Sequence record: LC739536.1
From: Escherichia phage phiWec187
Length of the DNA stretch: 64,000 nucleotides
Strand: one strand, 5' to 3'
Shown here: positions 23,773 to 62,900 of the stretch, in pieces
Layout: the number at the start of each line of letters is the position of its first letter
Numbering within the stretch: position 1 is the first letter of the stretch
The notes under the pieces: generated by a model
Told to the model about the DNA's origin: nothing
Database searches by the model: none
The model's input: the letters and a program-made list of their open reading frames with translations, nothing else
Program-made: the position numbers and the translations under genes

Positions 23773-23782
23773 ACTATGAAAA

Positions 23783-23864: not shown

Positions 23865-23882
23865 AAAAGTTTTAAAAACTAC

Positions 23883-23911: not shown

Positions 23912-23927
23912 TTAAAGTATGGTAACA

Positions 23928-24017
23928 GGAAGGTAGGGCGCAGCGGTGCGCAACCAGGTTTGAACCCTGGCCCATTGTAGCGATACGGTGATGGTTCGAC
24001 TCCATTATCTTCCTCCA
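23928..24017 (+). tRNA. tRNA-Ser (anticodon TGA)
   Basis: Anticodon loop TTTGAAC, long variable arm, encoded CCA. Confidence 0.6.
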
Positions 24018-24196
24018 AATTCTCTTAGGAGCTTTATGAATTATAAAACTATTGGACAGGTTGTTACCTGAGTTAAGATTGTAAATAATAAAGTTGTTTA
24101 TGAGTATTCTAATCTTCAACAATCCGAAGATGGTAAGAATATTCGTATGGTAAAAACAGAACAAAAAGATTCCGGTTGTTTTGAATAATTAAAAAC

Positions 24197-24282
24197 GGTA
24201 GATTGGTGAAATGGTAGCCACAACAGTTTGCTAAACTGTCGTCGGAAACGGCGTGTAGGTTCAAGTCCTACATCTACCGCCA
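24197..24282 (+). tRNA. tRNA-Ser (anticodon GCT)
   Basis: Anticodon loop TTGCTAA, variable-arm hairpin, T-loop GGTTCAAGTCC, CCA. Confidence 0.6.
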
Positions 24283-24416
24283 AGTTATCTTTAATGTAGC
24301 TTGTAATCTTACTTTAGCAGAGTAAACTTTCGGCAGATGGTGGCAGCCATTTTACCGATACCCCAATACTTCATAGCTAAGTGCCGCAAACACTGGCTAT
24401 TTTAAAGATAATTTAT

Positions 24417-24492
24417 ACATCGTTAGCTTAGTTGGTAGAGCAAGGTGCTTTTAACTCCAAGGTCGAAGGTTCGAATCCTTCACGATGTACCA
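24417..24492 (+). tRNA. tRNA-Lys (anticodon TTT), tentative
   Basis: D-arm GCTTAGTTGGTAGAGC; loop CTTTTAA with one stem mismatch; CCA. Confidence 0.5.
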
Positions 24493-24497
24493 AACAC

Positions 24498-24584
24498 GTA
24501 GGTATCGCATAGCGGCAATTGCTGGAGACTGTAAATCTCCTGCCCTTCGGGGCTTCGTTGGTTCGAGTCCAACTACCTGCACCA
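24498..24584 (+). tRNA. tRNA-Tyr (anticodon GTA)
   Basis: Anticodon arm GGAGA-CTGTAAA-TCTCC; variable-arm hairpin; CCA. Confidence 0.65.
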
Positions 24585-24591
24585 AATTAAA

Positions 24592-24676
24592 GATGGATTG
24601 GCCTAGTGGTTGGGCGACGGACTGTTAATCCGTGAACGAAAGTTCTAGCAAGGTTCAAATCCTTGATCCATCGCCA
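24592..24676 (+). tRNA. tRNA with anticodon GTT (Asn) and unusually long variable arm
   Basis: Anticodon arm ACGGA-CTGTTAA-TCCGT; 15-nt variable hairpin; T-loop GGTTCAAATCC; CCA. Confidence 0.5.
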
Positions 24677-24680
24677 AATA

Positions 24681-24749
24681 GTGCTTGTAGAGTTAATAGA
24701 AACCTCTAGAATTTTCTAGAATTGTAGGTATCAAATCCTACCAAGCAAA
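24681..24749 (+). ncRNA. degenerate tRNA-like element
   Basis: 6-bp acceptor-like pairing and T-arm-like hairpin but anticodon loop of 6 or 8 nt and no CCA. Confidence 0.25.
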
Positions 24750-24755
24750 TATTTT

Positions 24756-24830
24756 GCTCCTATCGTATAACGGCTATTACGGTTGCCTTGTAAGCAACTT
24801 ATCAGGGTTCGAGTCCTTGTGGGAGCACCA
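24756..24830 (+). tRNA. tRNA-Thr (anticodon TGT)
   Basis: Anticodon arm GTTGC-CTTGTAA-GCAAC; T-loop GGGTTCGAGTCC; CCA. Confidence 0.65.
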
Positions 24831-24852
24831 ATTTAACTCTAAAGGAGTGTAT

Positions 24853-25176
24853 GTGACAGAAAAAGAGTTAGAGAAATATTTTAATATCAATGTTTTCGAT
24901 GGCTTTGATGATATTGAAGATGTTGAAAGATATTATGAAGTAGAGTTAGATAAGGATAACATTGTAATTCTTTCTGCCACTTACGATTGTGCATATTATG
25001 AAGGCGAATCTCACGTTTATTTCTATGATATGAAAACATCTTTGTTTTATGAAGTACACGCATATCATTGTTCTTGCTATGGCTTAGAAGGTCAGTGGGA
25101 ACCTGAAGAAATAGGTGATTTGGACTTTACTATTGCATATCTAAACAGACGTGGTTCATCTACTATTTTAAAATAA
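24853..25176 (+). CDS. hypothetical protein inside tRNA cluster (GTG start)
   Basis: Track start 24754 overlaps tRNA-Thr; AAGGAG at 24842-24847 then GTG at 24853. Confidence 0.4.
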   Translation: MTEKELEKYFNINVFDGFDDIEDVERYYEVELDKDNIVILSATYDCAYYEGESHVYFYDMKTSLFYEVHAYHCSCYGLEGQWEPEEIGDLDFTIAYLNRRGSSTILK

Positions 25177-25190
25177 ATATCAAAAGCCTC

Positions 25191-25220
25191 TTGACAAAGG
25201 GGCTAATAATATGTTAGAGT
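25191..25220 (+). promoter_or_regulatory. sigma70-like promoter within tRNA cluster
   Basis: TTGACA-N17/18-TAGAGT upstream of tRNA-Gly at 25232. Confidence 0.45.
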
Positions 25221-25231
25221 AATATTGTTAA

Positions 25232-25306
25232 GCGGGTATAGTGTTAATGGTAGCATATGAGGTTTCCACCCTCCAGGTGCAGGTTCAAGTCCTGTTACTC
25301 GCTCCA
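25232..25306 (+). tRNA. tRNA-Gly (anticodon TCC)
   Basis: Anticodon loop TTTCCAC; T-loop GGTTCAAGTCC; CCA. Confidence 0.6.
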
Positions 25307-25737
25307 AGATTATTTAAATGGAATCGCTAGAGAAAATTTCTCTTTTCGCTCATGGTTTTCTCCTTCAAACTCTAGCGGTTCTTTTTAAGTGATTTTTTAG
25401 TTTATTGGAGATTCACTTCCTTAGTGTGAGCTAAAATCGAGGAGCCATCGAACTGTCTGATTAATGATTTGCGAATCATTATAGTTTTAAGACCCCGGTA
25501 GTTTTATGGTGTACCTCTTGAATGTGAATGATGACGGGTTTATGGTTATCCTGGTCGTTAAATATCCAAAAACCTATGTTCCCCTTGAGGGCTTGCGCAG
25601 GTAATGCCAATAAGTCCTGCATTTTCATTTAAAAGAGAATTTATAATGGAAAAAGATGAACTTAAGTATGCTAAGCCTCTGGCTTCTGCTGCACGAAAAG
25701 CAGTTCGTCACTTTGTGGTAACACTGAAGTAATTTAT

Positions 25738-25812
25738 TGGAGATTAGCCTAGTGGGAAGGCAACGGCCTTTGAAGTCGTGATGACTAGGTTCGATTCCTA
25801 GATCTCCAGCCA
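25738..25812 (+). tRNA. tRNA-Gln (anticodon TTG)
   Basis: Anticodon arm ACGGC-CTTTGAA-GTCGT; T-loop GGTTCGATTCC; CCA. Confidence 0.65.
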
Positions 25813-25819
25813 AGATTTA

Positions 25820-25895
25820 CAGTGCGTAGCGCAGTTGGTAGCGTGGGAGCCTTGGACGCTTCAGGTCGCAGGTTCGAGTCCTGCCGCACTGACCA
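25820..25895 (+). tRNA. tRNA-Pro (anticodon TGG)
   Basis: C1:G72 acceptor; anticodon loop CTTGGAC; CCA. Confidence 0.65.
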
Positions 25896-25900
25896 AATTT

Positions 25901-25975
25901 GCAGAGATAGCTGAGACGGATTAGTGCTACCCTGAAAAGGTAGAAAGGATGGATCGTTACCATCTCTCTGCACCA
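25901..25975 (+). tRNA. tRNA-Phe (anticodon GAA)
   Basis: Anticodon arm CTACC-CTGAAAA-GGTAG; CCA. Confidence 0.65.
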
Positions 25976-26052
25976 AATAACACCATCCAAGGAGTAGACT
26001 TGGTTAACTGTCAATAGCACATTGAGGCTTCTTACAGTGGTGTACTTATTAT

Positions 26053-26137
26053 GGCTAAGTGGTGGAATGGTATACACGATACGCTTAGAACGTATTGCCC
26101 CAAGGGATTGTGAGTTCGAGTCTCACCTTAGCTACCA
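26053..26137 (+). tRNA. tRNA-Leu (anticodon TAG), long variable arm
   Basis: Anticodon arm ATACG-CTTAGAA-CGTAT; T-loop GAGTTCGAGTCTC; CCA. Confidence 0.65.
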
Positions 26138-26152
26138 AATTATTACAGATTG

Positions 26153-26231
26153 TGCGGGATAGAGGAGTCTGGTCGTCCTCGCCAGTTTCATATGCTGGAG
26201 ATCATCGGTTCGAATCCGATTTCCGCCTCCA
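26153..26231 (+). tRNA. tRNA with anticodon CAT (Met or Ile2), mismatched first acceptor pair
   Basis: Anticodon arm CCAGT-TTCATAT-GCTGG; T-loop GGTTCGAATCC; CCA; 1:72 pair U-C. Confidence 0.5.
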
Positions 26232-26289
26232 ATAAATACCTCCCTTCTGGTGTAATGATTAAATTACATTGACACTTCAAGGAACTCAT

Positions 26290-26372
26290 AGCCGGGTAGA
26301 TTTAAAAGAGTATGGTACTCAATATGGCTCCAAACCATAGATCAGGGGGTTCGATTCCTCACCTTGCTGCCA
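26290..26372 (+). tRNA. atypical tRNA-like gene, possible tRNA-Trp (anticodon CCA)
   Basis: Anticodon arm TATGG-CTCCAAA-CCATA; T-loop GGGTTCGATTCC; CCA; D region too long. Confidence 0.35.
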
Positions 26373-26377
26373 ATTAT

Positions 26378-49230: not shown

Positions 49231-51306
49231 ATGAAACAGGCTATTTTTACTGTAACTCGAAATACGAGAGTAAATGCCAGTTCATTCAGCTATAAGACCG
49301 TCGATGGAACGGCGGTCGCTGGTAGAGATTATGTAGCTAAACAGGGAACAGTAACGTTCCCTTCTGATGCAGATTCTGCTACTGTAGTGGTTGATGTATA
49401 TGAACGCCCGGCAAACTCTTTAGATCTTTATTTTACTCTTGAGATTACTAGCATAAGTCAAAATAACATGATGATCAATGAAGAAATTCGTTGTGTTATT
49501 ACGACTAATCAATCGAATACAACCCCGCTAACTTGGCCTGTTGTGAAGTCTAGAATGTTTGATCCTAAGTTTTGGACAATAGATTCTCAAGCAACAGAAA
49601 GTTGTTCTATTATCTCTAATGGTGATTCTTTCACAGCAAGAATGGTTAATAGGACAGTGGCTGGTCTTGCTGGGATTATTTGGTCAACTTACGATAAATA
49701 TGATCACAAAGGATTAGGCTACCAAGAACATTCTGATTTAAGTAAAGAAAAACTTTGGTTTAAAATGGAACTTAGTCAAGGTGTTCCTGGATTAAAAGAA
49801 GAAAAATTAATGCCATCCTTAACAGTGACACTGAAGGATGAAACAGTTCATTATATATCTCTAAACTTTTATGCAGAAGAAGTTTCAGAGGACGGTAAAA
49901 CAGCAATAATCAAATTAGATTTCTCAAATTTAAAATCTGGGCCAGAAAATGATATTGTTGTTGACACTACACAGATAGATAACATGTTCTTCTCCTTGAT
50001 TTCCGCAAGGTATCAAGAAATTGAAGATGTTATACCAGTAGACAATATAGATCTTTCCTTTAAGTTTACCATACTAGAGCCTGATACTGGTTACAGTATG
50101 ATGAATATGGGTAATTTAAATGTTCCGGCGCACACCATAAGAATGTGTACATCTTATGATGATATGTATAACCTAACCCCAGAGCGAGTTATTTCTAACA
50201 CCTATAGATTAGGTTATAGAGATATGATTAACCATTATAATGGTATGTCACACTATTATCAATTTAGTTGGGATGCTGGATCTAATAAATGGGCTTTGAA
50301 CAGAACAGAATATTTAAACCCAGCAACAGAGGCCTGGTTTGATAATTTCCACGCTAATGCAAAAGCTATGGGCTACACAGTAATGAACTCCTTAAGTTTT
50401 GAAATTATGAGTACAGTGTGTCCTGTAGAATGGGTACAACATACTTGGAATGATGATCTGGCTGCTACAGGTTATGAGCCACCAAGTTATGTTTTATCTC
50501 CTTCAATTGATGAAGGGATGAATTATTTACAAGGTGTAATAAATAAGATAGCTTCTATATCCGCTGCTAATGATCTTCCGGTTATTATTCAGGTTGGTGA
50601 ACCGTGGTGGTGGTATAACACAGCTACCAATCTCCCGTGTATTTATGATTATGCAACCAAAGTTGCATTTAATAATGAAACTGGATTATATGCACAAGAT
50701 GTTGGTACAGTTAAGAATTATAAAACTGGTACACCATATGATGAATATTATGCATTCTTATCTAAAACATTAGGACTGCGTGTTGCTAAATTTGCAACAG
50801 ATACTAGATTAGCATATCCTGGAGCAAAAGTTACATTGTTACCATTTGTACCATCCATCTTAGGTAACGGTATGATGGAATTTGTTAACTTCCCTAAAGA
50901 TTATTATATCCCAGAAAACTTTGACTTTTATTGTTCAGAATGTTATGACTGGTTGTTGGAAGGTCAGATGGAAAGATCTTTCGATGCTATCACAATACCT
51001 AATGAACAATTAGGTTTTAGTTATGATAAGATACATTATCTTGCAGGGTTTGTTCCAGATGCAACTCTAGCACCATTATATGGCTTTGATCCTGAATCAG
51101 ACTACAGAACATATTTGTGGAAAATGATTATAGGTAATATTGTATTGAATGACCAGAGGTTTGTTGGTTTGTATCAATACATATGGGCTTATCCACAAAT
51201 TATGGCAGATTCATTAACTGTTCTTAATTCAAAATCCCAAGTTTTTTATATGGGTAACGTACCTCTGAATGTCTTTTTACAAGATACAGTATATGTTTCT
51301 TCTTAA
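49231..51306 (+). CDS. large structural protein, function unknown
   Basis: 691-aa ORF following the 958-aa gene. Confidence 0.4.
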   Translation: MKQAIFTVTRNTRVNASSFSYKTVDGTAVAGRDYVAKQGTVTFPSDADSATVVVDVYERPANSLDLYFTLEITSISQNNMMINEEIRCVITTNQSNTTPLTWPVVKSRMFDPKFWTIDSQATESCSIISNGDSFTARMVNRTVAGLAGIIWSTYDKYDHKGLGYQEHSDLSKEKLWFKMELSQGVPGLKEEKLMPSLTVTLKDETVHYISLNFYAEEVSEDGKTAIIKLDFSNLKSGPENDIVVDTTQIDNMFFSLISARYQEIEDVIPVDNIDLSFKFTILEPDTGYSMMNMGNLNVPAHTIRMCTSYDDMYNLTPERVISNTYRLGYRDMINHYNGMSHYYQFSWDAGSNKWALNRTEYLNPATEAWFDNFHANAKAMGYTVMNSLSFEIMSTVCPVEWVQHTWNDDLAATGYEPPSYVLSPSIDEGMNYLQGVINKIASISAANDLPVIIQVGEPWWWYNTATNLPCIYDYATKVAFNNETGLYAQDVGTVKNYKTGTPYDEYYAFLSKTLGLRVAKFATDTRLAYPGAKVTLLPFVPSILGNGMMEFVNFPKDYYIPENFDFYCSECYDWLLEGQMERSFDAITIPNEQLGFSYDKIHYLAGFVPDATLAPLYGFDPESDYRTYLWKMIIGNIVLNDQRFVGLYQYIWAYPQIMADSLTVLNSKSQVFYMGNVPLNVFLQDTVYVSS

Positions 51307-51317
51307 GGATCTCTAGT

Positions 51318-51563
51318 ATGAGAAAATTTTTAATAGGTATGTTTTGTACATATCCTGATAATAAAGTCAGTTCTACTAAAGTTTGGAATGCTATTGGTAT
51401 GATTGTTATGTCCAGTATGTTTATTTATTTGGGAATTGATAAAGAAATTCCTGAATGGATGGGCTGGGCTTTTGTTTTTATGATCACACCATCCAGACTG
51501 ATGAAGAATTTAATAGATTTACGTTGGGGCAGATCACCTGCCCCTGATAAGGAGGATAACTAA
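51318..51563 (+). CDS. small membrane protein
   Basis: 81 aa, two hydrophobic segments, charged C-terminus; embedded among baseplate genes. Confidence 0.35.
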   Translation: MRKFLIGMFCTYPDNKVSSTKVWNAIGMIVMSSMFIYLGIDKEIPEWMGWAFVFMITPSRLMKNLIDLRWGRSPAPDKEDN

Positions 51564-53050
51564 TGGCAGATTATGGTTTAACAGATGCTGGTTTTGTCAT
51601 TCCAACGTTTGATGATATTTTAAATAATTATATGACAGCATTGAAAAACACTTTCGGTGCAGATACAGCTACATCTGAAGATACTGTCTTTGGTCAACTG
51701 TTTCGTATTATTGCATATACAGATTACACCCTTTGGGAAGGTATGCAAGGTGTTTACAATACCCAAACCTTAGATGGTGCAGAAGGTATTTATCTTGATG
51801 AAATTTTCTCTAAAAGGGGTTTTTATCGTAAAGCTGCTTCTGCTGGTAGTGGTTATGCTTATGTTAAATCTAACAATAAGGCAGCTTGGACTTATGAGCT
51901 AAGCACAGATGTTTATTTTAATGCCGATAACGATTTGACATATTATGTCAGTGCACCAACAATGTTGAATGCTAAGATTGGAGCATATACCATTTCTAAA
52001 GCAAACGCAACAGCTTCTGGTGAAACTTCTATTACTTTCTACATTCAAAGTGCTATTGACGGTGGTCTTAACAGTAAAACACTAAGTCCTAGCAATACAA
52101 ACTTTATTTTAGATCTCACGAATTTCATTAAAGCTAACGTATCAACAACAGATCGTGCTTTAGTATGGAATGATGCTAGTAATGTTTACATGGGTTATAA
52201 TCCAGAAGATAATGTTAACCCAATAGGTTTAGTAACACCAGTGAAATTTTACGCATCTATTGCAATAGGTACAAAATGGAGTGAAATTCCAGTTACGTGT
52301 TCAGACGTTGGTTATAATCCAGTAGGTACAGAAAGTATCACAGGTATTTCTTCAACGTTTACAGGCTTTTTAGATACAGGTAACTTCTATCCATTCTCTC
52401 CAGGTACAGATGTTGAAACAGATGCAGAATTCCGTTCTCGTTTCAATGATAATATGGATGAAGCTAATGCTGCTACTCGTGCTGCTATTGTTAAAGCTCT
52501 GCTACTGACAGATGGTGTGACAAAGGTTAAGATTTATGATAACCCTACATTACATGATCAGGAACATGCTCCAGCTATGACATTCCAGACTATTGTGTAT
52601 GGTGGTACAGCAGAAGAAGTTGCACAGGTTATTTATAATACTAAACCTATTAACACCTTAACCTATGGTACAACAGCAATTACTATCGTAACAGAAGATG
52701 GCGGTCAAGAAGTAATTCGTTTTTCTCCTGGTGACAATGCTGAATATTCACTTAAACTGATATATCAAACTGGCAATGGTAGTGTGTTAAGTACAACAGA
52801 AAGAGAAAATATTGTTTCTGCTCTTTCAAACCTACAGGCTTATTTTGAGTTAGGGTCAACAGTAACTAACGATCAGATAAAAGGTGTAATTTATTCTGCA
52901 CTTGCGTTCGGACGCTTGACTTCTCTCCGTGTTTATGTTAAACTTAATACTGAGGATGACAGTAAATATAATGAGGGAGATATCACTCCAGCGTACAATG
53001 TTGTACCATCCTTTGACCTTGATAATATTTCCTACGAGTACGGAGTCTAA
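51563..53050 (+). CDS. putative baseplate J-like protein
   Basis: 495 aa; position before I-like and fibre genes. Confidence 0.35.
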   Translation: MADYGLTDAGFVIPTFDDILNNYMTALKNTFGADTATSEDTVFGQLFRIIAYTDYTLWEGMQGVYNTQTLDGAEGIYLDEIFSKRGFYRKAASAGSGYAYVKSNNKAAWTYELSTDVYFNADNDLTYYVSAPTMLNAKIGAYTISKANATASGETSITFYIQSAIDGGLNSKTLSPSNTNFILDLTNFIKANVSTTDRALVWNDASNVYMGYNPEDNVNPIGLVTPVKFYASIAIGTKWSEIPVTCSDVGYNPVGTESITGISSTFTGFLDTGNFYPFSPGTDVETDAEFRSRFNDNMDEANAATRAAIVKALLLTDGVTKVKIYDNPTLHDQEHAPAMTFQTIVYGGTAEEVAQVIYNTKPINTLTYGTTAITIVTEDGGQEVIRFSPGDNAEYSLKLIYQTGNGSVLSTTERENIVSALSNLQAYFELGSTVTNDQIKGVIYSALAFGRLTSLRVYVKLNTEDDSKYNEGDITPAYNVVPSFDLDNISYEYGV

Positions 53051-53052
53051 AA

Positions 53053-53682
53053 ATGGCAGTGAGTGTTGACCATGTGACAACGTGGGATAGTATCAATGAA
53101 GATGTTAAAGACCTACTGATTGAAGATTTTAAATCTTCTCCGAACATTGTCAAACTACTCTATATCATTTCTAGCGAAAAACAAAAGATAGATCAGGCAA
53201 TGATCTATCTTGCCAAACACCGCTTGATCTCTACTGCAACTGGTAAGTATTTAGATCTTATTGGTGAAGAGATGGGGATGGAAAGAAATGGTGCTACAGA
53301 TGAAGAGTATCGTACAATATTAAAAATCAGGGCTTATCGTGTTGCGTCTTCTGGTACGCGAGATGATATCATTGATATGTTCGCTCGTTTTACAGGAACA
53401 GAAAAAGAAACGATCAATACATACGTTGGATTAAATAAAACATTCGACGTATTCTTTTATAATTTGTGTCTACAATCCGATCAGGCAGTAGCACAGTTAC
53501 TTAACGTTTTCCCGATCCTAAGTAGTTATCGCTTAGGTGCGAAAGCGGGTTCAGCCTTTGGTTTCACTTCCTATTATGCCACAACTCCACCTCATGGCAT
53601 AGGTGGTTTAGGTTCTCTTTACACAGAGGCTGAAGGAGATGATACAGGGCGAATGACTATGCTGATAGCTCAAATAGAATAA
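53053..53682 (+). CDS. putative baseplate/tail protein (gpI-like position)
   Basis: 209-aa ORF following J-like gene. Confidence 0.3.
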   Translation: MAVSVDHVTTWDSINEDVKDLLIEDFKSSPNIVKLLYIISSEKQKIDQAMIYLAKHRLISTATGKYLDLIGEEMGMERNGATDEEYRTILKIRAYRVASSGTRDDIIDMFARFTGTEKETINTYVGLNKTFDVFFYNLCLQSDQAVAQLLNVFPILSSYRLGAKAGSAFGFTSYYATTPPHGIGGLGSLYTEAEGDDTGRMTMLIAQIE

Positions 53683-53695
53683 GGAGTTACCCTTA

Positions 53696-54676
53696 ATGGC
53701 AAAGCCACAATACTACCCTGACTGGGCGACACAAACAGTAACCCTCCCAGGAACGGGAAACACAAACAAGATTAGACCAAAAGAAACCATCCGTAATGTT
53801 GGTATGGACTTTGGTCAGATTATGACTTGTGAAGAAATGAACTGGATCTTAAACAATATTGGGTCTTGGATTCGCTATATGCAAGATGAATTCTTCCCAA
53901 CATTGCCTACTACATATCTTCCTATAGTCGGTACTAAAATTACAATGGCAGGTGATGCTACAGGTGAAGTTACATGGAATGGTAATGCTGCTGTAACATT
54001 ATCTATTCAAGTAGTAGATAACAGTCATAATCACTTATCAGCTAACATTACAGACGCAACATCGAACCAAGTTGTAGGAAATGTCCTTGTTAAGCGTGAT
54101 AATGGTGGTGCTATCTATGCAGGTGATATTTACACTTGTGGTACAGGTGCTACAGATCCTGCAACATTATTTTTTAGAAACTATAATGGACAAACAGTAG
54201 GCAATATGTCTTCTGAACCAGGTGCAGGTGGTCAACTCTATATTTATAGAATAAATCCATCTACTGGAGGAACATCTTGTGGAGTCCGTTTGTATGATGC
54301 AGGTTATGTTTTAATAGACAATCCTCGTTCTAATTCTGGTCAAGATACTGGCAATGGTAATGCTCTTGTAAGATTAGATTATCTTAACTCAAGACTAAAC
54401 TCATTGCAAAGTACACTGCAAAATAATATTAACAACGTTAATAGCAACTTGCAAGGCCAAATTAATAACATTAACAATAGAGTTTCTTCTGTTGTGTCTT
54501 CTATCCGTCTAGGTACACGTATTAAAGCTGGTGTATCTGAATCTCCTTTCTATGCTGGTCACGTGATCACAGGTTGGGGTTTTGGTGATAAGAAAGAACT
54601 TCGTGGTGCTTGGTATTGGTCTGCTCCGCTACAATATTACATTAATGGTAGGTGGATAACAGTAACCAACGTTTAG
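53696..54676 (+). CDS. putative tail fibre protein
   Basis: 326 aa with Asn/Gln/Leu-rich coiled-coil and Gly-rich beta region. Confidence 0.4.
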   Translation: MAKPQYYPDWATQTVTLPGTGNTNKIRPKETIRNVGMDFGQIMTCEEMNWILNNIGSWIRYMQDEFFPTLPTTYLPIVGTKITMAGDATGEVTWNGNAAVTLSIQVVDNSHNHLSANITDATSNQVVGNVLVKRDNGGAIYAGDIYTCGTGATDPATLFFRNYNGQTVGNMSSEPGAGGQLYIYRINPSTGGTSCGVRLYDAGYVLIDNPRSNSGQDTGNGNALVRLDYLNSRLNSLQSTLQNNINNVNSNLQGQINNINNRVSSVVSSIRLGTRIKAGVSESPFYAGHVITGWGFGDKKELRGAWYWSAPLQYYINGRWITVTNV

Positions 54677-54688
54677 TAAGGAGAACAC

Positions 54689-55240
54689 ATGAAAAAAGAT
54701 GTTATTTACACTGGCTTTGAACTATATCAACCAGAATTGACAGAAGAAAATGTCATCTATCTTTCAATAGGTGCTGGTTTTCTTAAAGATAAAGATGGTA
54801 ATGATTGGTACGAAATTCAGAAATATTTATCCAAAAATTACCCTGATGCCTATTTCTTAACTCTAGATCACAACAATGTAGTTGTTGCAGCTACGAAAGA
54901 TGTTTCTACATATTTTCCCGCTGGTCTTACTGTTCTTGTAACATACAATGTTCCAGATAAAATAGAAGAAGAAAGCAACCTAGGGTCGTGGAGATATGAC
55001 AATGGTAAGTTTATTTCTCATAATGGGTTTGCAATAGAAGATGCCAACCTTAAAATGGAAAAAGAATTAACTTGGGCCACAAATCAAATATCTGCAATTC
55101 AAGATTTAGAGGAATTACAAGGTTTATCTGAAGAACAAAAAGATTGGTTAGGAAAAGTTAAACTCTATCGTGCAACATTAATTCAAATTAACGTTGAAGA
55201 TGCACCTAATATAACTTGGCCTACAAGACCTAAGAAATAG
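54689..55240 (+). CDS. putative tail fibre assembly protein
   Basis: 183 aa immediately after fibre gene. Confidence 0.35.
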   Translation: MKKDVIYTGFELYQPELTEENVIYLSIGAGFLKDKDGNDWYEIQKYLSKNYPDAYFLTLDHNNVVVAATKDVSTYFPAGLTVLVTYNVPDKIEEESNLGSWRYDNGKFISHNGFAIEDANLKMEKELTWATNQISAIQDLEELQGLSEEQKDWLGKVKLYRATLIQINVEDAPNITWPTRPKK

Positions 55241-55249
55241 GGGCAATGT

Positions 55250-55591
55250 ATGGAGCTAACAGAAGTATGGGATATCGCTAAAGAGGCGATTATCCCTCTT
55301 ATTGGCGTAATCTGGGTGGTCTTCAAACAGAAGATAGATGATATGGCAAGTGATTTGGATAAAATGGAAGACAAATACCGCGAACTAGAAAAGAAGTTGG
55401 TGTTTGTTGAATCCACTTATGCTACCAAAGCAGAACTTGCTCAAATGCTTAACCAGATCAACTCTACATTAATGGCAAATAATACTGCCTTAGAACAGAA
55501 GATTGAAAAAATAATGGATTTAAAAAATGCTCCTGTTCAATTAATGCTAGAGGAGATTACAAAGCGCACACAAAGTAAGGACAAAAATTAA
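55250..55591 (+). CDS. hypothetical membrane-anchored coiled-coil protein
   Basis: 113 aa; N-terminal hydrophobic segment then coiled-coil. Confidence 0.35.
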   Translation: MELTEVWDIAKEAIIPLIGVIWVVFKQKIDDMASDLDKMEDKYRELEKKLVFVESTYATKAELAQMLNQINSTLMANNTALEQKIEKIMDLKNAPVQLMLEEITKRTQSKDKN

Positions 55592-58005
55592 TGGCGAATT
55601 TTCCAACATATCCTGCTACGACACTAGAACAAGGTGTTGATCTGGTTATATTCTCGTCTAACCAGATGCATGATGTTATTAATGGGGATGCTACAGCAAC
55701 TGTAGAAACCGAAACAGGTTTAATACCTACACTGCGTAAAGCACTTGTTGATAACTTCTTCTTTAAGAGTCCTGTTGCTTGGTCAGCAGGATCAACTGAA
55801 ACTGTATTTAACCAGTTACGTTATTTTGAAAACGGTATCTTGAGTGGGTACTATTATGCCCCATCTGCCACTACTGCGAACCCTGTACCTATGCAGGGCA
55901 CACCTGTAGGGGACAGTAACTGGACTCTGTACGCTCTTAAAACTGAACAGTTAGCTTCAGATGTGTATCCTTGGTATTTTAAAGGTGCTACAGGATATGA
56001 AACAGAAATCAGTCCTCCTTATATCTTTGATAATGCTATTGTCACCATTAACGGTGTAATTCAGATTCAAGGTGAAGCATTTACTATCAAAGATAGTAAA
56101 ATTATTCTGGCAGAACCATTAGGTTTAGATCCGTCTACTGGTCTACCTAACAAATTGTTTGCTTTTATTGGTAAAACAACAGCTTCTACTTCTTACGTAG
56201 AGAAAAACCTTTTGTCATCTACTACTGGTGCAGCAATGGTTGGTCTTCCATCTGGAGGCAACCTGTTACAAGCTCAATACTTTGTAACGCCTGAGCAGTT
56301 TGGTGCAATTGGTGATGGAGTTACCGATGATACTCAAGCAATTTTAAAAACTATCACTTTCGCTAACACGAATAACATTCAAGTACGTGCAGATAAGAAT
56401 TATAGATTCACAAGCTCAATTGCTATGTCTGGTATTCGTTGGTATGGTGGTACATTCACTGGTAACGGTGGAACAATGATTTCTACTGTGTCCTGTTGGA
56501 TGGAAAACGTTCGCTTTGAAAAATGTTATGTTAAGATGTTAGGTGGTGATTGCCGATTCTATCGTAATATCTTCTCCAACGCAACATCTACAGCAGCATT
56601 CTTAATGCAAGCAATGACAAGTGAAGGTACGTTGGACTTCAGTTACAACGAAATGTATGGTTGTAAATATGCGATCCTGCAACAAGGTACTGGAGAAGTA
56701 ATGACCTACGGGCGTTACTCTAACAACTATATTCACGATATCAAAGGTGATGCTATTGAACTTAACGTAGTTCAAAAACACTACACTGAAGGTTTGATTA
56801 TCGAGAATAACCACATTGCTAACGTAGATGCTTCTGGACAAGGTGCAAACTGGGGTATTGGTATTGGTGTAGCAGGTAGTGGCCCATATGGTGTTGATGT
56901 TCCTGATTCACAATATGTACGTAATTTCAGTATCGTTGGGAATAGGGTTTACAATTGCCGTCAATGTTTACACGTTGAAATGGGTAAAAACTTCACAATA
57001 CGTGATAATGAAGTTTATCCTAACACAGCAGTTTCAACAGGTACAGGTTTAACTACTTGTGGTGTTGCATTATACGGATGCCAAGATTTTGAAGTTGATG
57101 GTTTAACTGGTTATCTGCTCAATGATCCGTCTGTTTCAACACGTATGGTCTTTATTGACTGGGGTGTTAACAGTGGAAGATATGCGGGGCCACCAATTAA
57201 CTTTACAATTAAGAATTTGGATATTCCAGAATCTTCAATTGAGATTGCAACATCTGGATCAGATGCCTGGGAAAACTCTACAATTGTTAGTAATATCAAT
57301 TGTAATATTTTTAAATGGCGTGGGCTACCATCTAGCTCTACCTTTAATAATATTCGTTGCCGTAGTATTGACTTTATTGGTCAACACGGAAGCGGAGAAG
57401 GAAGTGGTGGCGGTTTCTATACTCGCAGCCAATTCACGTATATGAAGTGGGTAGGATGTACAGCACTTAGCGGAGATGAAACAACAGTTTCTTTTGCTAA
57501 AATCTACACTGATCGTTGCGATCAGGTTGGAAATAACTTTGGTGTTCCAACTGCTGTTGATGGTACAGGTCATCGTGGGCCAGTTTTAACTACTATTTCT
57601 GAACAATATTTTACAGCTTATGATGAATTCCCAGGTGGGCGTGAATTCCCTACTGGAACAGTTATTCATTGTGCAAGCGGTAAAAAACATGTTGTTACAG
57701 TAGGTGGTGCTTTCTTTAGTGACAACGAGAAAATAAAAGCAACTGTTACAGGTCAAACCTATCTACAGTCTAATGCTTTAAACTGGGCTAGTAATGGCTA
57801 CGCTAAAGCAGCAGGTACTAAGATTGTTATTCCAGGTGCAGGTGCAAATGGCGGCGATCTTGTGACAACTATAGCACGTGCTACATATGTGACAAATAGT
57901 TTGTACACAATAGATATTGCAGATCCAATTGTAACACCTACAGCAGAGAATACACAAATTAAAGCTCTGAATCCTGTTACTTTTGTTACTGTCAATAATG
58001 CTTAA
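55591..58005 (+). CDS. tailspike with pectate-lyase-like beta-helix domain
   Basis: FGAIGDGVTDDTQAILKTI is the signature of right-handed beta-helix glycanases in tailspikes. Confidence 0.55.
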   Translation: MANFPTYPATTLEQGVDLVIFSSNQMHDVINGDATATVETETGLIPTLRKALVDNFFFKSPVAWSAGSTETVFNQLRYFENGILSGYYYAPSATTANPVPMQGTPVGDSNWTLYALKTEQLASDVYPWYFKGATGYETEISPPYIFDNAIVTINGVIQIQGEAFTIKDSKIILAEPLGLDPSTGLPNKLFAFIGKTTASTSYVEKNLLSSTTGAAMVGLPSGGNLLQAQYFVTPEQFGAIGDGVTDDTQAILKTITFANTNNIQVRADKNYRFTSSIAMSGIRWYGGTFTGNGGTMISTVSCWMENVRFEKCYVKMLGGDCRFYRNIFSNATSTAAFLMQAMTSEGTLDFSYNEMYGCKYAILQQGTGEVMTYGRYSNNYIHDIKGDAIELNVVQKHYTEGLIIENNHIANVDASGQGANWGIGIGVAGSGPYGVDVPDSQYVRNFSIVGNRVYNCRQCLHVEMGKNFTIRDNEVYPNTAVSTGTGLTTCGVALYGCQDFEVDGLTGYLLNDPSVSTRMVFIDWGVNSGRYAGPPINFTIKNLDIPESSIEIATSGSDAWENSTIVSNINCNIFKWRGLPSSSTFNNIRCRSIDFIGQHGSGEGSGGGFYTRSQFTYMKWVGCTALSGDETTVSFAKIYTDRCDQVGNNFGVPTAVDGTGHRGPVLTTISEQYFTAYDEFPGGREFPTGTVIHCASGKKHVVTVGGAFFSDNEKIKATVTGQTYLQSNALNWASNGYAKAAGTKIVIPGAGANGGDLVTTIARATYVTNSLYTIDIADPIVTPTAENTQIKALNPVTFVTVNNA

Positions 58006-58008
58006 TTA

Positions 58009-58032
58009 AAAAGGGGCGAAAGCCCCTTTATA
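58009..58032 (+). terminator. hairpin terminator after tailspike gene
   Basis: AAAAAGGGGCGAAAGCCCCTTTAT; same sequence as the 8881-8900 hairpin on the opposite strand. Confidence 0.45.
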
Positions 58033-58046
58033 AAAGGAGTAGTAAA

Positions 58047-60008
58047 GTGATTTTAACACGTCCAAATAGTGCCATTGCAGACATGGTAGAGTCTCGCTAT
58101 AGAAAGCGTAGAAGTTTTGCAAGTGGTTTTACCTTAAGAGATGCTCGTGAAGCATTGCTCTTTGAAACTGACGGTAACTACTATCAGTGGAAAGGTTCTC
58201 TACCTAAAGTTGTACCTGCTAACTCTACTCCTACATCTACTGGAGGGATTTCAGATACAGCTTGGAAAAATGTGGGTAATGCAGATGACATTGCTCAAAT
58301 AGAATCAGAATTAGATGCTATTGAAGCTGAAATTGAAGATCTTAGAGAATCCATTCCAGAGGCTGGTAAATCAGCTTACCAGATTGCCGTAGACAATGGT
58401 TTCCAAGGTACTGAGACAGAGTGGTTGGCTTCTTTAAAAGGTGATCCAGGTGCTCCATTAAAGCTACTAGGGACGCTATCTAATACCAACCAATTACCTA
58501 CAACTGGAAACAATGCAGGGGATGCATGGATTGTAGGCGAGAATATGTATGCTTGGGATGGTACTGCTTGGAGAAAAGTAAACTCACAGGGGCCAGAAGG
58601 TAAATCTGCTTATGAAGTATGGCTTGCAGCAGGAAACGAAGGTACAGAACTAGATTATCTTGCCGCAATTAAAGGTGATAAAGGGGAGCCTGGCCCAGAG
58701 GGGCCACAAGGTGTGCCAGGTAATAATGCTAATGGTTTTGATTACCAAGGCGCAGCTAATTCCGTTTCAGATCTTCCTTCTGCATCTCCTGGAAACACAT
58801 CTCAAGCATGGAGTATTGGTACATATCTATACGTGTCAAACGGTGTAGAATGGATCAATATGGGCGCTATAGTGGGGCCAAAAGGAGATAAAGGCGACAA
58901 AGGAGATAAGGGTAACACTGGTGATTCAGCTTATCAAGTCTGGTTAAATGCTGGTAACGTTGGTACTATTGACGAATATATTGCCTCTCTGAAAGGAGAA
59001 AAAGGTGATAAGGGAGACAAGGGTGATCAAGGTGAACAGGGTATACAAGGCTTGACGGGGCCAACTGGTGCAGGGTTGACCATTATTGACATTCTGACTA
59101 GCACTTCTGAACTACCACAAACTGGAGAAGATGGCGATGGTTATCTGATCAATAATGAACTTTGGGTCTGGTTGCAAGGAGCCACAGAGTGGACAAATGT
59201 TGGTCGTTTAGCTGGTACTCCAATCACTGCAAAAGGACACGTTGCGTCTGCAAGTGCACTTCCTCCTACAGCCAATTACGGTGATGCTTATCTGACGGAA
59301 GATACAGGTCATCTTTACATTTACACCTATGATGAACAAACTCAAACTGCTGAATATGTAGATATGGGTAGTTTGAAAGGTGATAAGGGTGAAAAAGGTG
59401 ACGCTGGTACTAACGGTACAGACGGTGCAACTTGGATTGTTAAAACAACAGATCCAATCTCTAGTGATGGTAAACAAGGTGATTATGCCTTTAATATCTC
59501 CACTGGCGAGGTGTTCTTAAAAACATCTGCAACTATCTGGACTTCTCAAGGTACACTACCTAGTATCACAGATGCACCTAGTGATGGTAAGACTTATGCT
59601 CGTAAAGATGGAGCATGGGAAGAACTCACTAATTCTGTAGATGGTCAAGATATAGTTCCAACAAAAGTAACAACTAATTTTATAGAGGTTACAGCATATA
59701 CTAACAATTCTGTTACAGGGGACTGGACACCTCCAGGAACACATAACATGAATGTGTTGAATCTTACTGGTAACTCTACTATAAAAGCATGGCCTGGTGT
59801 CGAAGATAGCACAAAACCTAAACCATTCTCTGCAATAGTTTATCTTATCCAAGATGCCACTGGAGGTCGTACTGTTACTTTAGATCCATCTTACAAAGTA
59901 ATTGGTTCCAGTGATATTAATACAGATCCTAACGGAGTAACAATACTACAACTAACATATTGTGGTGTTGGCGATTACGTGGATGCTATTGTTGCTAAAC
60001 GCACATAA
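58047..60008 (+). CDS. tail fibre with collagen-like and fibre-repeat modules
   Basis: Gly-X-Y runs (GDKGDKGDKGNTG, GEKGDKGDKGDQGEQG) alternate with three repeats of a GKSAYQ...WL...LKGD module. Confidence 0.55.
   Translation: MILTRPNSAIADMVESRYRKRRSFASGFTLRDAREALLFETDGNYYQWKGSLPKVVPANSTPTSTGGISDTAWKNVGNADDIAQIESELDAIEAEIEDLRESIPEAGKSAYQIAVDNGFQGTETEWLASLKGDPGAPLKLLGTLSNTNQLPTTGNNAGDAWIVGENMYAWDGTAWRKVNSQGPEGKSAYEVWLAAGNEGTELDYLAAIKGDKGEPGPEGPQGVPGNNANGFDYQGAANSVSDLPSASPGNTSQAWSIGTYLYVSNGVEWINMGAIVGPKGDKGDKGDKGNTGDSAYQVWLNAGNVGTIDEYIASLKGEKGDKGDKGDQGEQGIQGLTGPTGAGLTIIDILTSTSELPQTGEDGDGYLINNELWVWLQGATEWTNVGRLAGTPITAKGHVASASALPPTANYGDAYLTEDTGHLYIYTYDEQTQTAEYVDMGSLKGDKGEKGDAGTNGTDGATWIVKTTDPISSDGKQGDYAFNISTGEVFLKTSATIWTSQGTLPSITDAPSDGKTYARKDGAWEELTNSVDGQDIVPTKVTTNFIEVTAYTNNSVTGDWTPPGTHNMNVLNLTGNSTIKAWPGVEDSTKPKPFSAIVYLIQDATGGRTVTLDPSYKVIGSSDINTDPNGVTILQLTYCGVGDYVDAIVAKRT
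58880..59420 (+). repeat. collagen-like Gly-X-Y coding repeats
   Basis: Reiterated AAAGG(A/T)GA(T/A)AAGGG units at about 58881, 58990 and 59377. Confidence 0.5.
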
Positions 60009-60009
60009 T

Positions 60010-60035
60010 CAAAGCCCCTTCTGGGGCTTATTATT
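60010..60035 (+). terminator. hairpin terminator after collagen-like fibre gene
   Basis: AGCCCC-TTCT-GGGGCT then TATTATTT. Confidence 0.45.
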
Positions 60036-60047
60036 TAAGGAGATTAA

Positions 60048-62867
60048 ATGTATCCTATTCCTTTATTTATGTCAACAACATCAGCTTCAGTAGTAACAGC
60101 TACATCTATAACTACTTCCTCTATTGGTATTGCAATAGTTGGTGGTAAAAAACAACTGACATACACAGTTACACCGGAAGATGGTGCATTATTTGATATA
60201 GCTTTTTCATCTTCAGATAATACCAAAATGGTTATAGATAATAGTGGTATGATGGAGTTTGTTGCCGAAGGTGGTTTTGATGCAATAATGACAGCTAAAA
60301 ATAATTTAGGTGCTGTCTTAACTGATCAATCTGGTGGTTATGCTTCAGAATTAAGTGTGTACACTGAAAGTCTATCGGCTATGGATGTAGGCACTACTCA
60401 ACAGTTGGTTGCTACAATCAGTCCAGAAGGTGCTAAAGACCTTCCAGATATGGTAATTACATACACCACAACAGATCCAGAAGTAGCTACTGTAAGCCCT
60501 ACAGGGTTAATAACTGCTCTTAAAGATGGCGGTTGCCGTATAGGTTGTACTGCAACGTATCAAGGAACAGTTGTGGCCTCTGATAGGTCTTATTTAGGTG
60601 TTAATGCTATTCCTGTTATTTCTAATGTAACAGCCGTGGCAAACAGTTATGGAGACGTTCGTGTTGCTTGGGATGTAACTGATCCGCTAGACGGTGATAC
60701 TTATACTGTAGAAGTATTAGATTTAAGTAATAATAGTGTTCAGTGGACTACAACAACCACGAATACTTACGCTTACTTTGATATCTCTGACTCTATTCCT
60801 CTTTATGGGTTTGCTCCAACATACCTTAAAATTAGCGTTAAGAGCACCAAAGCAGCAGCCGTTATCTTTAATAACTCAATAGCTACAGATGATTCGTTCA
60901 TTAAAGAAGTTATTGTCTTTGCTGGACAAGATAACGTAAATGCACACTTTACAGAACTATCTGGTGCAAATAAAGCAGCAATGAGTAGCACAACAGCCCG
61001 TAATGCATATGCCACGCAACGTGGTTTAGCAAATGCTGAAGTTCTTCCGTTAAATACAGCTTCTGGATCATCAGCAGCAGATAAATATGCAGATGATAAA
61101 GCCGGAACAGGAACACCAGACAACTACTGGTATGATCTGGATAACACAGCAGATGGGCCATGCTTAACTAACTTTATCACTAAAGTCACACCTTATGCAA
61201 GTAAGGTTAAAGCCATTATTTGGGGACAAGGTGAAAATGATGCTGTATCAGCATCTTCGACTGTTGCAGGTAGGTACAGTAACACTACACGTTACCATGA
61301 TGCTACGATAGCCATCTTTGATAAGATGCGTACAATAGTTCCTGCTTCTCAAGCAAAAATTGTTTGGCAGATCCTAGGACGTTCTTATTTATATGGTGTA
61401 GAAGTTAATGGTGTGGATTGGCAGAAGTACAGAAATGTACAAAGAACCATCTCTACAGCACGTGATGATGTTATCATTGGTTCTTGGGTAGATGGTGCTG
61501 AACGTTACAGTGGTTATGTTTATGAAGAAGGTATTGATGGTCGTATCCATTATATTTCTTCTGTATACCAAACAGCAGCTACAAAACTTGCTAAATCAGC
61601 AGCAGACGGTACAGACTTAACATCAACGTCACCTGTTTGGGTTGATATGGCTGTTCCAACTGGAGCAACAGCTACTTCCCAATCTAATCAAGATACAATT
61701 TTAGCATGGGATGCTCAAGGCTATAGTAAACACTACTTCCGTAATATTAACGTCTTAACCGCATCTGTATTAACTGAACAAACGCTTAATACGAACAGTT
61801 ATACGTTTACCTATGCAGATCAAGTAGCACAATATGGCTTTGCAGCAGGAACTACTATATTTGATGTTGCATATTATGACGAAGCAAATGATGTGTTATC
61901 TCCTTTAGTACGTTTTAATGTTAACGTTACAGCAGGAACCGTAGAAGATAAACCTGTAGTGATGGATTATGATTTAACACAAGAAACTCTTCCATCAGAT
62001 GTTAAGGTTAATGGTGGGAACTCTTTTGCTCGTACTTCTGGAGATACACTTGTAGCCACTAACACCTTGGTTGCTCCGTTGGAGTATATTGGTACTACCC
62101 CTGTAGGTAGACGTGTAACAGCTAACACAGCTACACAAATTTTTGTCAACAACGCCTTAACAAGTGCAAGCCCGTGGGTAAAGACCAACTTAACTGTTGC
62201 AGCTTCATCTGATAACTCTCCGGTTGGAACTACTGCTAATGTATTCAAATTAACTCCGACTACAACCTCTGGTAGTCATATCTTAACTGCAACATATACT
62301 AACGCGTACAACATATCTGCCGGACGTAACTGGTCTGCCTCTGTTTTCTTGAAAGCGAACGGGATTACTAAGGCCAAACTAAGATTAAAAGCAGGAACTG
62401 AAGTTAATGAGGGTACTTTTGATTTAGCAGCAGGTACATTCACAGGAAGTGAAGCTAATATTATATCTATGGGCAACGGTTGGTATCGTGCTATTCTGCA
62501 TAAAACAGGGATAGCCAAACAGTCCTCCATAAGTTTTGAAATAATTGCCTTGGATGCAACTGGTGCGGAGATTTTCGCTGGAGATGGTACTAGTAACCTT
62601 GCAGTTTGGTTGCCACAGCTTGAAGGTGCTTCTACAGGAGAAACATCAAAAGCTGGATCGCCTTATGTCTGCACATATCCTGGAAATTTAGGAGGAGTAT
62701 CCTTCACTATACCAAGGAACGGACATACTGGTGTGGATGTTTACTATTCCAACGGAGACGTTGTTCGTGACGTATTCTCTGGTACGGCATCTACTTGGAC
62801 AATAAACTACTCCAGCTTGTACGATTGGGGATCAGTCTTTATTACAGGTTTGAAATATTACGACTAA
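60048..62867 (+). CDS. tail fibre / receptor-binding protein with Ig-like domains
   Basis: 939 aa; two Big_2-like segments in N-terminal third; Thr/Ser-rich; terminator downstream. Confidence 0.5.
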   Translation: MYPIPLFMSTTSASVVTATSITTSSIGIAIVGGKKQLTYTVTPEDGALFDIAFSSSDNTKMVIDNSGMMEFVAEGGFDAIMTAKNNLGAVLTDQSGGYASELSVYTESLSAMDVGTTQQLVATISPEGAKDLPDMVITYTTTDPEVATVSPTGLITALKDGGCRIGCTATYQGTVVASDRSYLGVNAIPVISNVTAVANSYGDVRVAWDVTDPLDGDTYTVEVLDLSNNSVQWTTTTTNTYAYFDISDSIPLYGFAPTYLKISVKSTKAAAVIFNNSIATDDSFIKEVIVFAGQDNVNAHFTELSGANKAAMSSTTARNAYATQRGLANAEVLPLNTASGSSAADKYADDKAGTGTPDNYWYDLDNTADGPCLTNFITKVTPYASKVKAIIWGQGENDAVSASSTVAGRYSNTTRYHDATIAIFDKMRTIVPASQAKIVWQILGRSYLYGVEVNGVDWQKYRNVQRTISTARDDVIIGSWVDGAERYSGYVYEEGIDGRIHYISSVYQTAATKLAKSAADGTDLTSTSPVWVDMAVPTGATATSQSNQDTILAWDAQGYSKHYFRNINVLTASVLTEQTLNTNSYTFTYADQVAQYGFAAGTTIFDVAYYDEANDVLSPLVRFNVNVTAGTVEDKPVVMDYDLTQETLPSDVKVNGGNSFARTSGDTLVATNTLVAPLEYIGTTPVGRRVTANTATQIFVNNALTSASPWVKTNLTVAASSDNSPVGTTANVFKLTPTTTSGSHILTATYTNAYNISAGRNWSASVFLKANGITKAKLRLKAGTEVNEGTFDLAAGTFTGSEANIISMGNGWYRAILHKTGIAKQSSISFEIIALDATGAEIFAGDGTSNLAVWLPQLEGASTGETSKAGSPYVCTYPGNLGGVSFTIPRNGHTGVDVYYSNGDVVRDVFSGTASTWTINYSSLYDWGSVFITGLKYYD

Positions 62868-62869
62868 TA

Positions 62870-62900
62870 AAAAAGGAGCCATTAGGCTCCTTTTCTTTTA
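62870..62900 (+). terminator. bidirectional terminator between convergent genes
   Basis: GGAGCC-ATTA-GGCTCC flanked by A-run and TTTTCTTTT. Confidence 0.55.

Follow-up and report, generated by a model that had tools for sequence, protein, structure and literature searches.

A probable colanic acid-degrading tailspike of the phi92 gp150 type in Escherichia phage phiWec187

Escherichia coli and its relatives make a colanic acid slime under envelope (Rcs) stress, and phage resistance commonly arises through mucoid mutants that overproduce it. The closest described system for the locus considered here is gp150 of phage phi92, for which two structures are available: (i) PDB 6E0V, entitled 'Apo crystal structure of the colanidase tailspike protein gp150 of Phage Phi92'; and (ii) PDB 6E0W ('Bacteriophage Phi92 gp150'). 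According to PMC13450770, which cites Xu et al. (2025) on this point, gp150 reportedly hydrolyses a Glc-Fuc glycosidic bond. The same paper states that an enzyme of the gp150 type is already in use for the production of colanic acid oligosaccharides.

The locus lies in a stretch of 64,000 nucleotides from Escherichia phage phiWec187 (LC739536.1; this whole stretch is hereafter the window), which is assigned to Justusliebigvirus and has phage inny as its nearest relative among the records (99.1% over 24 kb). An 804-codon open reading frame runs from ATG to TAA at positions 55591..58005 of the plus strand; the frame is real and its coordinates are exactly those given in the first-pass annotation, which had read the 804-aa product as a tailspike. 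This identity is borne out, as 801 of the 804 residues are the same in phi92 gp150 (YP_009012482.1; also 804 aa) and the DNA is 99.4% identical to phi92 gene 150. Besides, PDB 6E0V and 6E0W match aa 180-804, and PHROG 6117 'colanic acid degradation' matches aa 172-801 (E = 7e-270). The best alignment to protein cluster P0001, which has 180 member sequences, shows 100% identity over 100% of the query. About 55 phage records (Justusliebigvirus genomes) match the gene at 95% identity or more (95-99.6%), while the colanidase module is found in 254 phage records.

Chance is excluded as an explanation because of the 99.4% DNA identity to phi92 gene 150 and the 55 phage records at or above 95%. Very probably, the gene encodes the tailspike with which a phi92-like myovirus (Justusliebigvirus) attacks colanic acid, the spike being a colanidase and a hydrolase, with the activity being transferred from the 99.6%-identical gp150 of phi92. 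In this sense the feature is already known: it is a near-exact copy of a solved tailspike. The expectation that the phage degrades a surface polysaccharide holds, given phi92 gp150 and PHROG 6117; the proposed O-antigen or serotype-specific K capsule gives way to colanic acid (the M-antigen slime capsule), which by 99.6% identity to gp150 is the predicted substrate.

The immediate surroundings of the gene resemble those in phi92 as well. Positions 51323-60637 of the window are colinear with phi92 82595-91909 (99.2%), and the gene order is retained: baseplate J-like wedge, baseplate protein, fibre, fibre-assembly protein, 113-aa protein, colanidase, and collagen-repeat fibre. The colanidase gene sits in the tail-fibre/baseplate block, between the orthologs of gp149 and gp151. 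A ribosome-binding site, AAGGA (55577..55581, plus strand), lies 9 nt 5' of the ATG; in phi92, an AGGA site is annotated at the equivalent position and the start of gene 150 is identical. The ATG overlaps the stop codon of the upstream 113-aa frame (TAATG), an arrangement that suggests translational coupling. A scan for a tailspike-specific promoter returned 36 promoter-like sites versus 30.9 ± 5.3 in shuffled sequence, that is, no excess.

Eight nucleotides past the tailspike stop codon, the plus strand carries a GC-rich hairpin (GGGGC-GAAA-GCCCC followed by TTTAT; 58013..58029), which precedes the ribosome-binding site of the next fibre gene and may serve to end transcription, as a weak intrinsic terminator, or to stabilise the mRNA. 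With so short a T tract, it was not called in the terminator scan. The two genes that come next are likewise followed by similar hairpins (60012-60029 and 62871-62894).

The tailspike is modular, consisting of (i) an N-terminal anchor; (ii) a beta-helix; and (iii) a C-terminal Ig-like domain. The anchor, or virion-attachment domain, spans aa 1 to about 126 (55591..55968, plus strand): aa 12-126 match residues 15-130 of chain g ('putative tail fiber protein') in 9CUY, a structure of the phiTE baseplate (E = 9.4e-18), and aa 9-116 match PHROG 4549 'tail fiber'. It is followed by a stretch (aa 124-179; 55960..56127, plus strand) that is, by its matches, a small beta domain that also occurs in other phages, in their tail-fibre and adaptor proteins. 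PHROGs 2710 and 11393 span aa 124-179, and aa 123-197 give weak matches to PDB sequences, namely 23sh_r 'tail fiber gp9' (E = 7e-4), 8es4_G 'Gp44' (E = 0.002), and 7y22_e 'tail adaptor protein' (E = 0.048).

Homologs bearing PF26208 have only the first quarter in common with the tailspike (58-67% identity) and then continue with other domains (PF27114, PF12708, PF13472), so that the N-terminal module is joined to differing enzymatic domains in other tailspikes. Such modules are often exchanged and tailspike specificities change fast, which raises the question of whether this spike targets another glycan, such as an O-antigen or a K-capsule. This reading is very improbable. The entire catalytic domain is kept, and the three substitutions that separate the protein from phi92 gp150 (I282V, S528N, and I574V) are all conservative and fall on none of the columns that are invariant among homologs; a changed substrate specificity was rejected on these grounds. 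Moreover, the gene is 95-99.6% conserved in about 55 phage records whose hosts differ in serotype and include K-12, which has neither O-antigen nor K-capsule.

The catalytic domain is a right-handed parallel beta-helix, from aa 236 to about 650 (56296..57540, plus strand), as the first reading had proposed. In the AF2 model, a monomer model in which aa 1-205 are unreliable (pLDDT below 50), this span consists of regular short strands and most of its 10-residue blocks have a mean pLDDT of 85-98 (72-77 in the lowest blocks). A profile of 28 homologs compared with PDB sequences reached no solved beta-helix beyond 6E0V and, therefore, a fold search was needed. In Foldseek, 6E0V was the top match (E = 1.3e-84; TM 0.75 on target length) and was followed by parallel beta-helix enzymes and tailspikes only: AlgE4/AlgE6 epimerases, an alginate epimerase/lyase, GH87 glucanases, and the tailspikes Sf6, CBA120, HK620, and phi29 gp12. 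The Ig-like domain at the C-terminus (aa 704-792; 57700..57966, plus strand) matches Pfam PF20745 TSP_Ig-like at 55.1 bits (E = 9e-15; profile positions 2-85 of 86), above the gathering score of 27.9 bits, and its AF2 pLDDT is mostly 82-95.

The start of the helix is marked by the motif FGAIGDGVTDDTQAILKTI, to which the first reading had pointed and which sits at the N-terminal cap (aa 237-255; 56299..56355, plus strand). In a search of the whole window in six reading frames with the relaxed pattern G[AVIL]xGDGxxD[DN], it is the sole match. The region behind it, described earlier as rich in Gly, Asn, and Thr, is moderately so (G 11.8%, N 8.2%, and T 8.4% in aa 236-650), and aa 651-804 contain 11.0% G and 14.3% T. 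The profile search that the first-pass annotation had suggested did not bear out membership in Pectate_lyase_3 (PF12708, now Pect-lyase_RHGA_epim): the match is confined to aa 236-294 (profile positions 6-63 of 213; E = 0.03) and reaches 14.6 bits, below the gathering score of 27 bits. Another sub-threshold match, to the start of PF12218 End_N_terminal, covers aa 239-263 (E = 0.0047), and the Pfam search of the tailspike returned no Beta_helix or Pectate_lyase family above threshold. The likeness to PF12708 does not extend beyond the cap motif at the N-terminal end; both have the fold class in common, while the profile does not place the protein in the family. Here the GDGxTDD cap motif enabled a reader without tools to identify as a beta-helix depolymerase a protein that the Pfam pectate-lyase profile misses.

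Within the helix, aa 358-556 (56662..57258, plus strand) form a conserved core which is homologous to WcaM, a protein of the host's colanic acid cluster. NCBIfam TIGR04004 (WcaM) matches aa 358-553 with E = 4.7e-29, and in BLASTP aa 360-556 align with residues 165-352 of E. coli K-12 WcaM (32% identity, E = 1e-26). The scores of TIGR04004 (101.3 bits) and of the NF007517 WcaM profile (98.2 bits) stay below the equivalog cutoffs of 794.6 and 808, respectively; judged by these scores, the tailspike core is a WcaM homolog, not an equivalog. The core motifs GDAIELN, NWGIGIG, and CRQxxHVE are present in the tailspike and common to WcaM. Across the 28 homologs, as well as in a set including WcaM, seven residues are invariant or nearly so (D387, E390, W421, R457, Q458, H461, and E463). 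Three carboxylates, D387 (nt 56749-56751), E390 (nt 56758-56760), and E463 (nt 56977-56979), all on the plus strand, are invariant across the family, WcaM included, and their conservation makes them candidate catalytic residues.

These residues bear on whether the protein acts at all and, if so, by which chemistry. Some of the beta-helix fold matches are adhesins, such as PfbA of Streptococcus pneumoniae, and the spike might then bind colanic acid as an adhesin only, being catalytically inactive in the virion. We consider this the least probable of the readings weighed here, as all family-invariant polar residues are intact and, according to PMC13450770, the phi92 protein, which is 99.6% identical, reportedly acts as an enzyme. 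It is also improbable, if slightly less so than a different glycan target, that the spike is a polysaccharide lyase which cuts by beta-elimination beside the side-chain glucuronic acid, with no backbone hydrolysis. Glucuronic acid is indeed present in colanic acid (from the product names of WcaA and others), the fold neighbours include the alginate epimerase/lyase 8JAZ and the lyase RbmB (9OZD), and there is the weak match to PF12708. But this match is sub-threshold and limited to the cap, many hydrolases are likewise found among the fold neighbours (GH87; the Sf6, HK620, and CBA120 tailspikes), and three invariant carboxylates are what is expected of a glycoside hydrolase. Since gp150 reportedly hydrolyses the Glc-Fuc bond, 'pectate-lyase-type', the term used in the first reading, is a label that fits the fold and not the chemistry. 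The preferred reading is that of a colanic acid hydrolase.

On this reading, the protein is one of several receptor-binding proteins whose genes form the tail-fibre block. Judged from other tailspikes and from the phi92 protein of solved structure, the spike is presumably a trimer, in which (i) the N-terminal domain, from aa 1 to about 180, would anchor it to the baseplate or fibre network; (ii) the beta-helix would bind colanic acid and hydrolyse its backbone glucose-fucose bond, an activity and a bond taken from the literature, to release oligosaccharides; and (iii) the Ig-like domain would make up the C-terminal end. As for the position in the particle, PMC13450770 states that the 'fiber II' density of the phi92 virion was not matched by AlphaFold3 models of gp150. 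Cutting the colanic acid slime would give the virion access to deeper receptors, and the spike would then be a barrier-remover rather than an essential receptor binder. In the accessible portions of the reports on genome-wide K-12 screens, the receptors named are NGR and LPS (for Justusliebigvirus, NGR plus LPS GlcI), and colanic acid is not named as a receptor; therefore, the enzyme may be dispensable on non-mucoid laboratory hosts. Since it carries a conserved colanidase, the phage should cope with mucoid mutants which overproduce colanic acid.

The relationship with WcaM invites a further, tentative proposal. The phage colanidase core and WcaM possibly have one active site (D387/E390/E463, NWGIGIG, and HVE) and a common ancestry, in which case WcaM would itself be a colanic acid glycanase; we regard this as conceivable, with the odds somewhat against it. 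If true, WcaM would be a glycanase within a biosynthesis cluster, like the trimming enzymes of other exopolysaccharide clusters, and the phage enzymes and wcaM would descend from a common ancestor, possibly via host gene capture. This idea concerns the whole family and not the window alone. One phage homolog is already named 'colanic acid biosynthesis protein' in databases, so the homology to WcaM is visible in annotations.

With regard to significance, the analysis adds nothing to the biology; its value lies in the correct functional annotation of one Justusliebigvirus gene, whose product is a near-exact source of the enzyme already used to obtain colanic acid oligosaccharides.

Compared with known systems, phi92 gp150 is alike in length, genomic position (with orthologs of gp149 and gp151 at its sides), ribosome-binding site, start, and predicted fold. 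The two genomes differ in that the window genome has no endosialidase gene gp143 and contains a single 939-aa open reading frame downstream of the gp151 ortholog. The colanic acid-degrading proteins of jumbo phages of the 121Q/PBECO4 type, an unrelated lineage of about 350 kb, are 57-58% identical in the catalytic beta-helix and C-terminal domain, along almost the whole module; the copy in phage PBECO4 (58% identity) bears a colanic acid-degrading annotation. By contrast, their N-terminal part is different and shorter, the total being 713 aa and the coverage of the query 76%.

More distant relatives have the fold in common. Sf6, HK620, CBA120 TSP1-3, phi29 gp12, the AlgE4/AlgE6 A-modules, and GH87 belong to the same fold class (Foldseek E 1e-6 to 1e-3), and these pectin-lyase-like beta-helix proteins bear, where the helix begins, a GDGxTDD-type cap motif as the tailspike does, but they show just 9-15% sequence identity to it and act on other substrates. 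WcaM (b2043), whose gene closes the colanic acid (wca) cluster, is closer in sequence: some 200 residues of its beta-helix core are 32% identical to the tailspike, with the motifs GDAIE-N, NWGIGIG-AGS, and CRQ--HVE-GK, which comprise the equivalents of D387, E390, and E463. Unlike the tailspike, WcaM is a 464-aa bacterial protein which lacks both the N-terminal and the Ig-like C-terminal domains, and its annotation reads only 'putative colanic acid biosynthesis protein'.

The open reading frame at 55591-58005 (+) runs from ATG to TAA and encodes, at exactly these coordinates, 804 aa. An AAGGA ribosome-binding site was read 9 nt 5' of its ATG, on the same strand, the ATG itself overlaps the stop codon of the preceding 113-aa ORF (TAATG), and a hairpin (GGGGC-GAAA-GCCCC) lies 3' of the tailspike stop codon. 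The sequence FGAIGDGVTDDTQAILKTI corresponds to aa 237-255 (nt 56299-56355) and is followed by a region moderately enriched in Gly, Asn and Thr; in a six-frame scan of the window, a relaxed form of this motif gave a single match. The frame, the motif and the Gly/Asn/Thr-rich region described in the first-pass annotation are, in consequence, all present where they had been placed.

That annotation also proposed a tailspike which probably degrades or modifies a surface polysaccharide (O-antigen or capsule). The proposal is supported, and it can be sharpened to a colanic acid hydrolase by the near-identity of the protein with phi92 gp150, the characterised colanidase tailspike of phage phi92 (YP_009012482.1): (i) 801 of the 804 residues are the same (the changes being I282V, S528N and I574V) and the two genes are 99.4% identical at the DNA level; (ii) in a PDB sequence search, aa 180-804 were covered by entries 6E0V and 6E0W, 'Bacteriophage Phi92 gp150'; and (iii) PHROG 6117 ('colanic acid degradation') matched with E = 7e-270. 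With thresholds of 95% identity and 80% gene coverage, 55 phage records carry the gene; those that are annotated, among the records listed, mostly read 'colanic acid-degrading protein' or 'colanidase tailspike'. The feature is already known: phi92-like phages carry this colanic acid hydrolase tailspike, and the structure of a 99.6%-identical protein has been solved. As to its source, window positions 40000-64000 align at 99.1% identity with Escherichia phage inny, a Justusliebigvirus from Danish wastewater isolated on E. coli K-12, an identity which, judged from sequence, places the window in a phi92-like myovirus distinct from phi92.

The structure was predicted from an alignment of 28 homologs, with a mean pLDDT of 75.9. 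Confidence is high over most of aa 230-650 and 670-800 (means of 10-residue blocks mostly 85-98) and low at aa 1-205, and short strands follow one another in regular succession between about aa 264 and aa 646. The top Foldseek match in the PDB was 6E0V (E = 1.3e-84), 'Apo crystal structure of the colanidase tailspike protein gp150 of Phage Phi92'. Below it, only right-handed parallel beta-helix proteins were returned: the A-modules of the mannuronan epimerases AlgE4 and AlgE6, an alginate epimerase/lyase, GH87 glucanases, the tailspikes of Sf6, Dettilon, HK620 and CBA120, and phi29 gp12. Therefore, the beta-helix anticipated from the sequence is correct. The pectate-lyase profile suggested as a check in the first-pass annotation did not hold: PF12708 (formerly Pectate_lyase_3) scored 14.6 bits where 27 are required, over aa 236-294 only. 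The sole above-threshold family in the local Pfam copy was TSP_Ig-like, at the C-terminus (aa 704-792), and a family profile run against PDB sequences matched 6E0V alone.

The helix core is related to WcaM, a protein from the colanic acid (wca) gene cluster of E. coli. Residues 358-553 match the NCBIfam WcaM model (E = 4.7e-29, far under its equivalog cutoff), and aa 360-556 (window 56668-57258) share 32% identity with residues 165-352 of E. coli K-12 WcaM (E = 1e-26), whose gene was taken from the K-12 wca cluster (2503-3897 (-) in that stretch). Both proteins contain the motifs GDAIE-N, NWGIGIG-AGS and CRQ--HVE-GK. Homolog alignments that include WcaM as well as the phage enzymes show seven invariant residues, D387, E390, W421, R457, Q458, H461 and E463; from this conservation, we propose the carboxylates D387, E390 and E463 as candidates for catalysis. 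That WcaM has the same conserved core and the same three carboxylates as the phage colanidases suggests that it may itself be a colanic acid glycanase. A lyase mechanism for the tailspike is disfavoured, both by this invariance of the carboxylates and by the hydrolysis reported for gp150.

The protein is modular. Its putative anchor (aa 1 to about 126) matches PHROG 4549 and residues 15-130 of a tail-fibre chain in the baseplate structure 9CUY of Pectobacterium phage phiTE (E = 9.4e-18); then come a small beta domain (aa 124-179), weakly similar to fibre proteins and adaptors in other phages, the beta-helix (aa 236 to about 650) and the Ig-like domain. Many homologs have only the first quarter in common (58-67% identity), followed by other C-terminal domains, and the catalytic module is also found behind Tail_spike_N (PF18668), the P22-type head-binding domain (PF09008) and PF03906. 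Such recombination of N-terminal and catalytic modules is ordinary tailspike module shuffling. The catalytic module occurs in 254 phage records, which include (i) Justusliebigvirus (at least 95% identity); (ii) 121Q/PBECO4-type jumbo phages (~58%); (iii) phage 4MG with related records from Salmonella and Enterobacter phages, ~142-150 kb in length (~37%); (iv) phAPEC8 and similar Escherichia phages of ~150 kb (~33%); and (v) Cronobacter phages and several podophages of ~42 kb (~28-33%). Most records listed already carry a colanidase annotation. Four or five 'Campylobacter phage' records (host C. jejuni), such as MG065639.1 'Campylobacter phage A150', also carry the colanidase (~98.6% protein identity, genomes of ~146 kb); they are probably Justusliebigvirus genomes with a mislabelled host or from contamination.

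A different glycan target is disfavoured, since the entire catalytic domain is kept, the three changes from gp150 are conservative with none on an invariant column, and the gene is at least 95% conserved in phages from many isolation hosts, K-12 included. A purely adhesive role is likewise disfavoured by the enzymatic activity reported for gp150, which, according to PMC13450770 (citing Xu et al. 2025), is used to make colanic acid oligosaccharides. Phage J8-65, which also carries a colanidase, produces halos that expand on mucoid E. coli and makes such cells more accessible to T7 (PMC4179555). Most likely, the spike acts as a barrier-remover: it would cut colanic acid, allowing other fibres to reach their receptors, and would matter chiefly on mucoid, Rcs-activated hosts. 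The place of gp150 in the phi92 virion is unsettled, as AlphaFold3 models misfit the 'fiber II' density (PMC13450770).

Directly 5' of the colanidase, the 113-aa ORF (55250-55591, +) is a 'lipoprotein' according to PHROG 15210 and RefSeq. No cysteine was found in its sequence and, therefore, lipidation is impossible; the product resembles a hydrophobic helix at the N-terminus with a coiled coil after it. Downstream, the gp151 ortholog (58047-60008, +; GTG start) joins a Tail_spike_N (TSP1/Gp66-type) N-terminus to collagen-like repeats and an end weakly similar to fibritin C; this fibre has a branching-adaptor type N-terminus, as in CBA120/G7C-like phages. Farther upstream lie 15 tRNA genes (23535-26453, +; Met x2, Leu x2, Ser x2, Lys, Tyr, Asn, Thr, Gly, Gln, Pro, Phe, Ile).

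Several neighbours differ from phi92 (NC_023693.1). The next tail protein (60048-62867, +) is a single 939-aa frame with a Big_2 Ig-like domain, whereas phi92 has two short genes at this position, gp152 (203 aa) and gp153 (296 aa; annotated 'no RBS identified; weak prodigal statistics'). Positions 60638-60855 and 61932-62869 of the window are missing from phi92, where the 939-aa protein looks to have been split or shortened by deletion into gp152/gp153. The gp142 ortholog (49231-51306, +; 691 aa against 719 in phi92, with an unlike C-terminal end) has a Calx-beta domain and matches PF23844 and PF23845 (E = 8.9e-82), which in the N4-type 'non-contractile tail sheath protein' (N4-gp65-like) are the N-terminal domain and the TIM barrel; phi92 gp142 is named as the NGR-glycan-binding fibre in a 2026 preprint. 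Finally, unlike phi92, the window lacks the endosialidase gene (gp143, EndoN92): only 36 nt (51287-51322) stand in place of phi92 79652-82594, a segment that also spans the gp142 3' end and the gp144 5' end. The phage is therefore without a K1/K92 polysialic acid depolymerase, the enzyme that defines the phi92 host range. The endosialidase slot is a variable cassette site; the colanidase, by contrast, is conserved.
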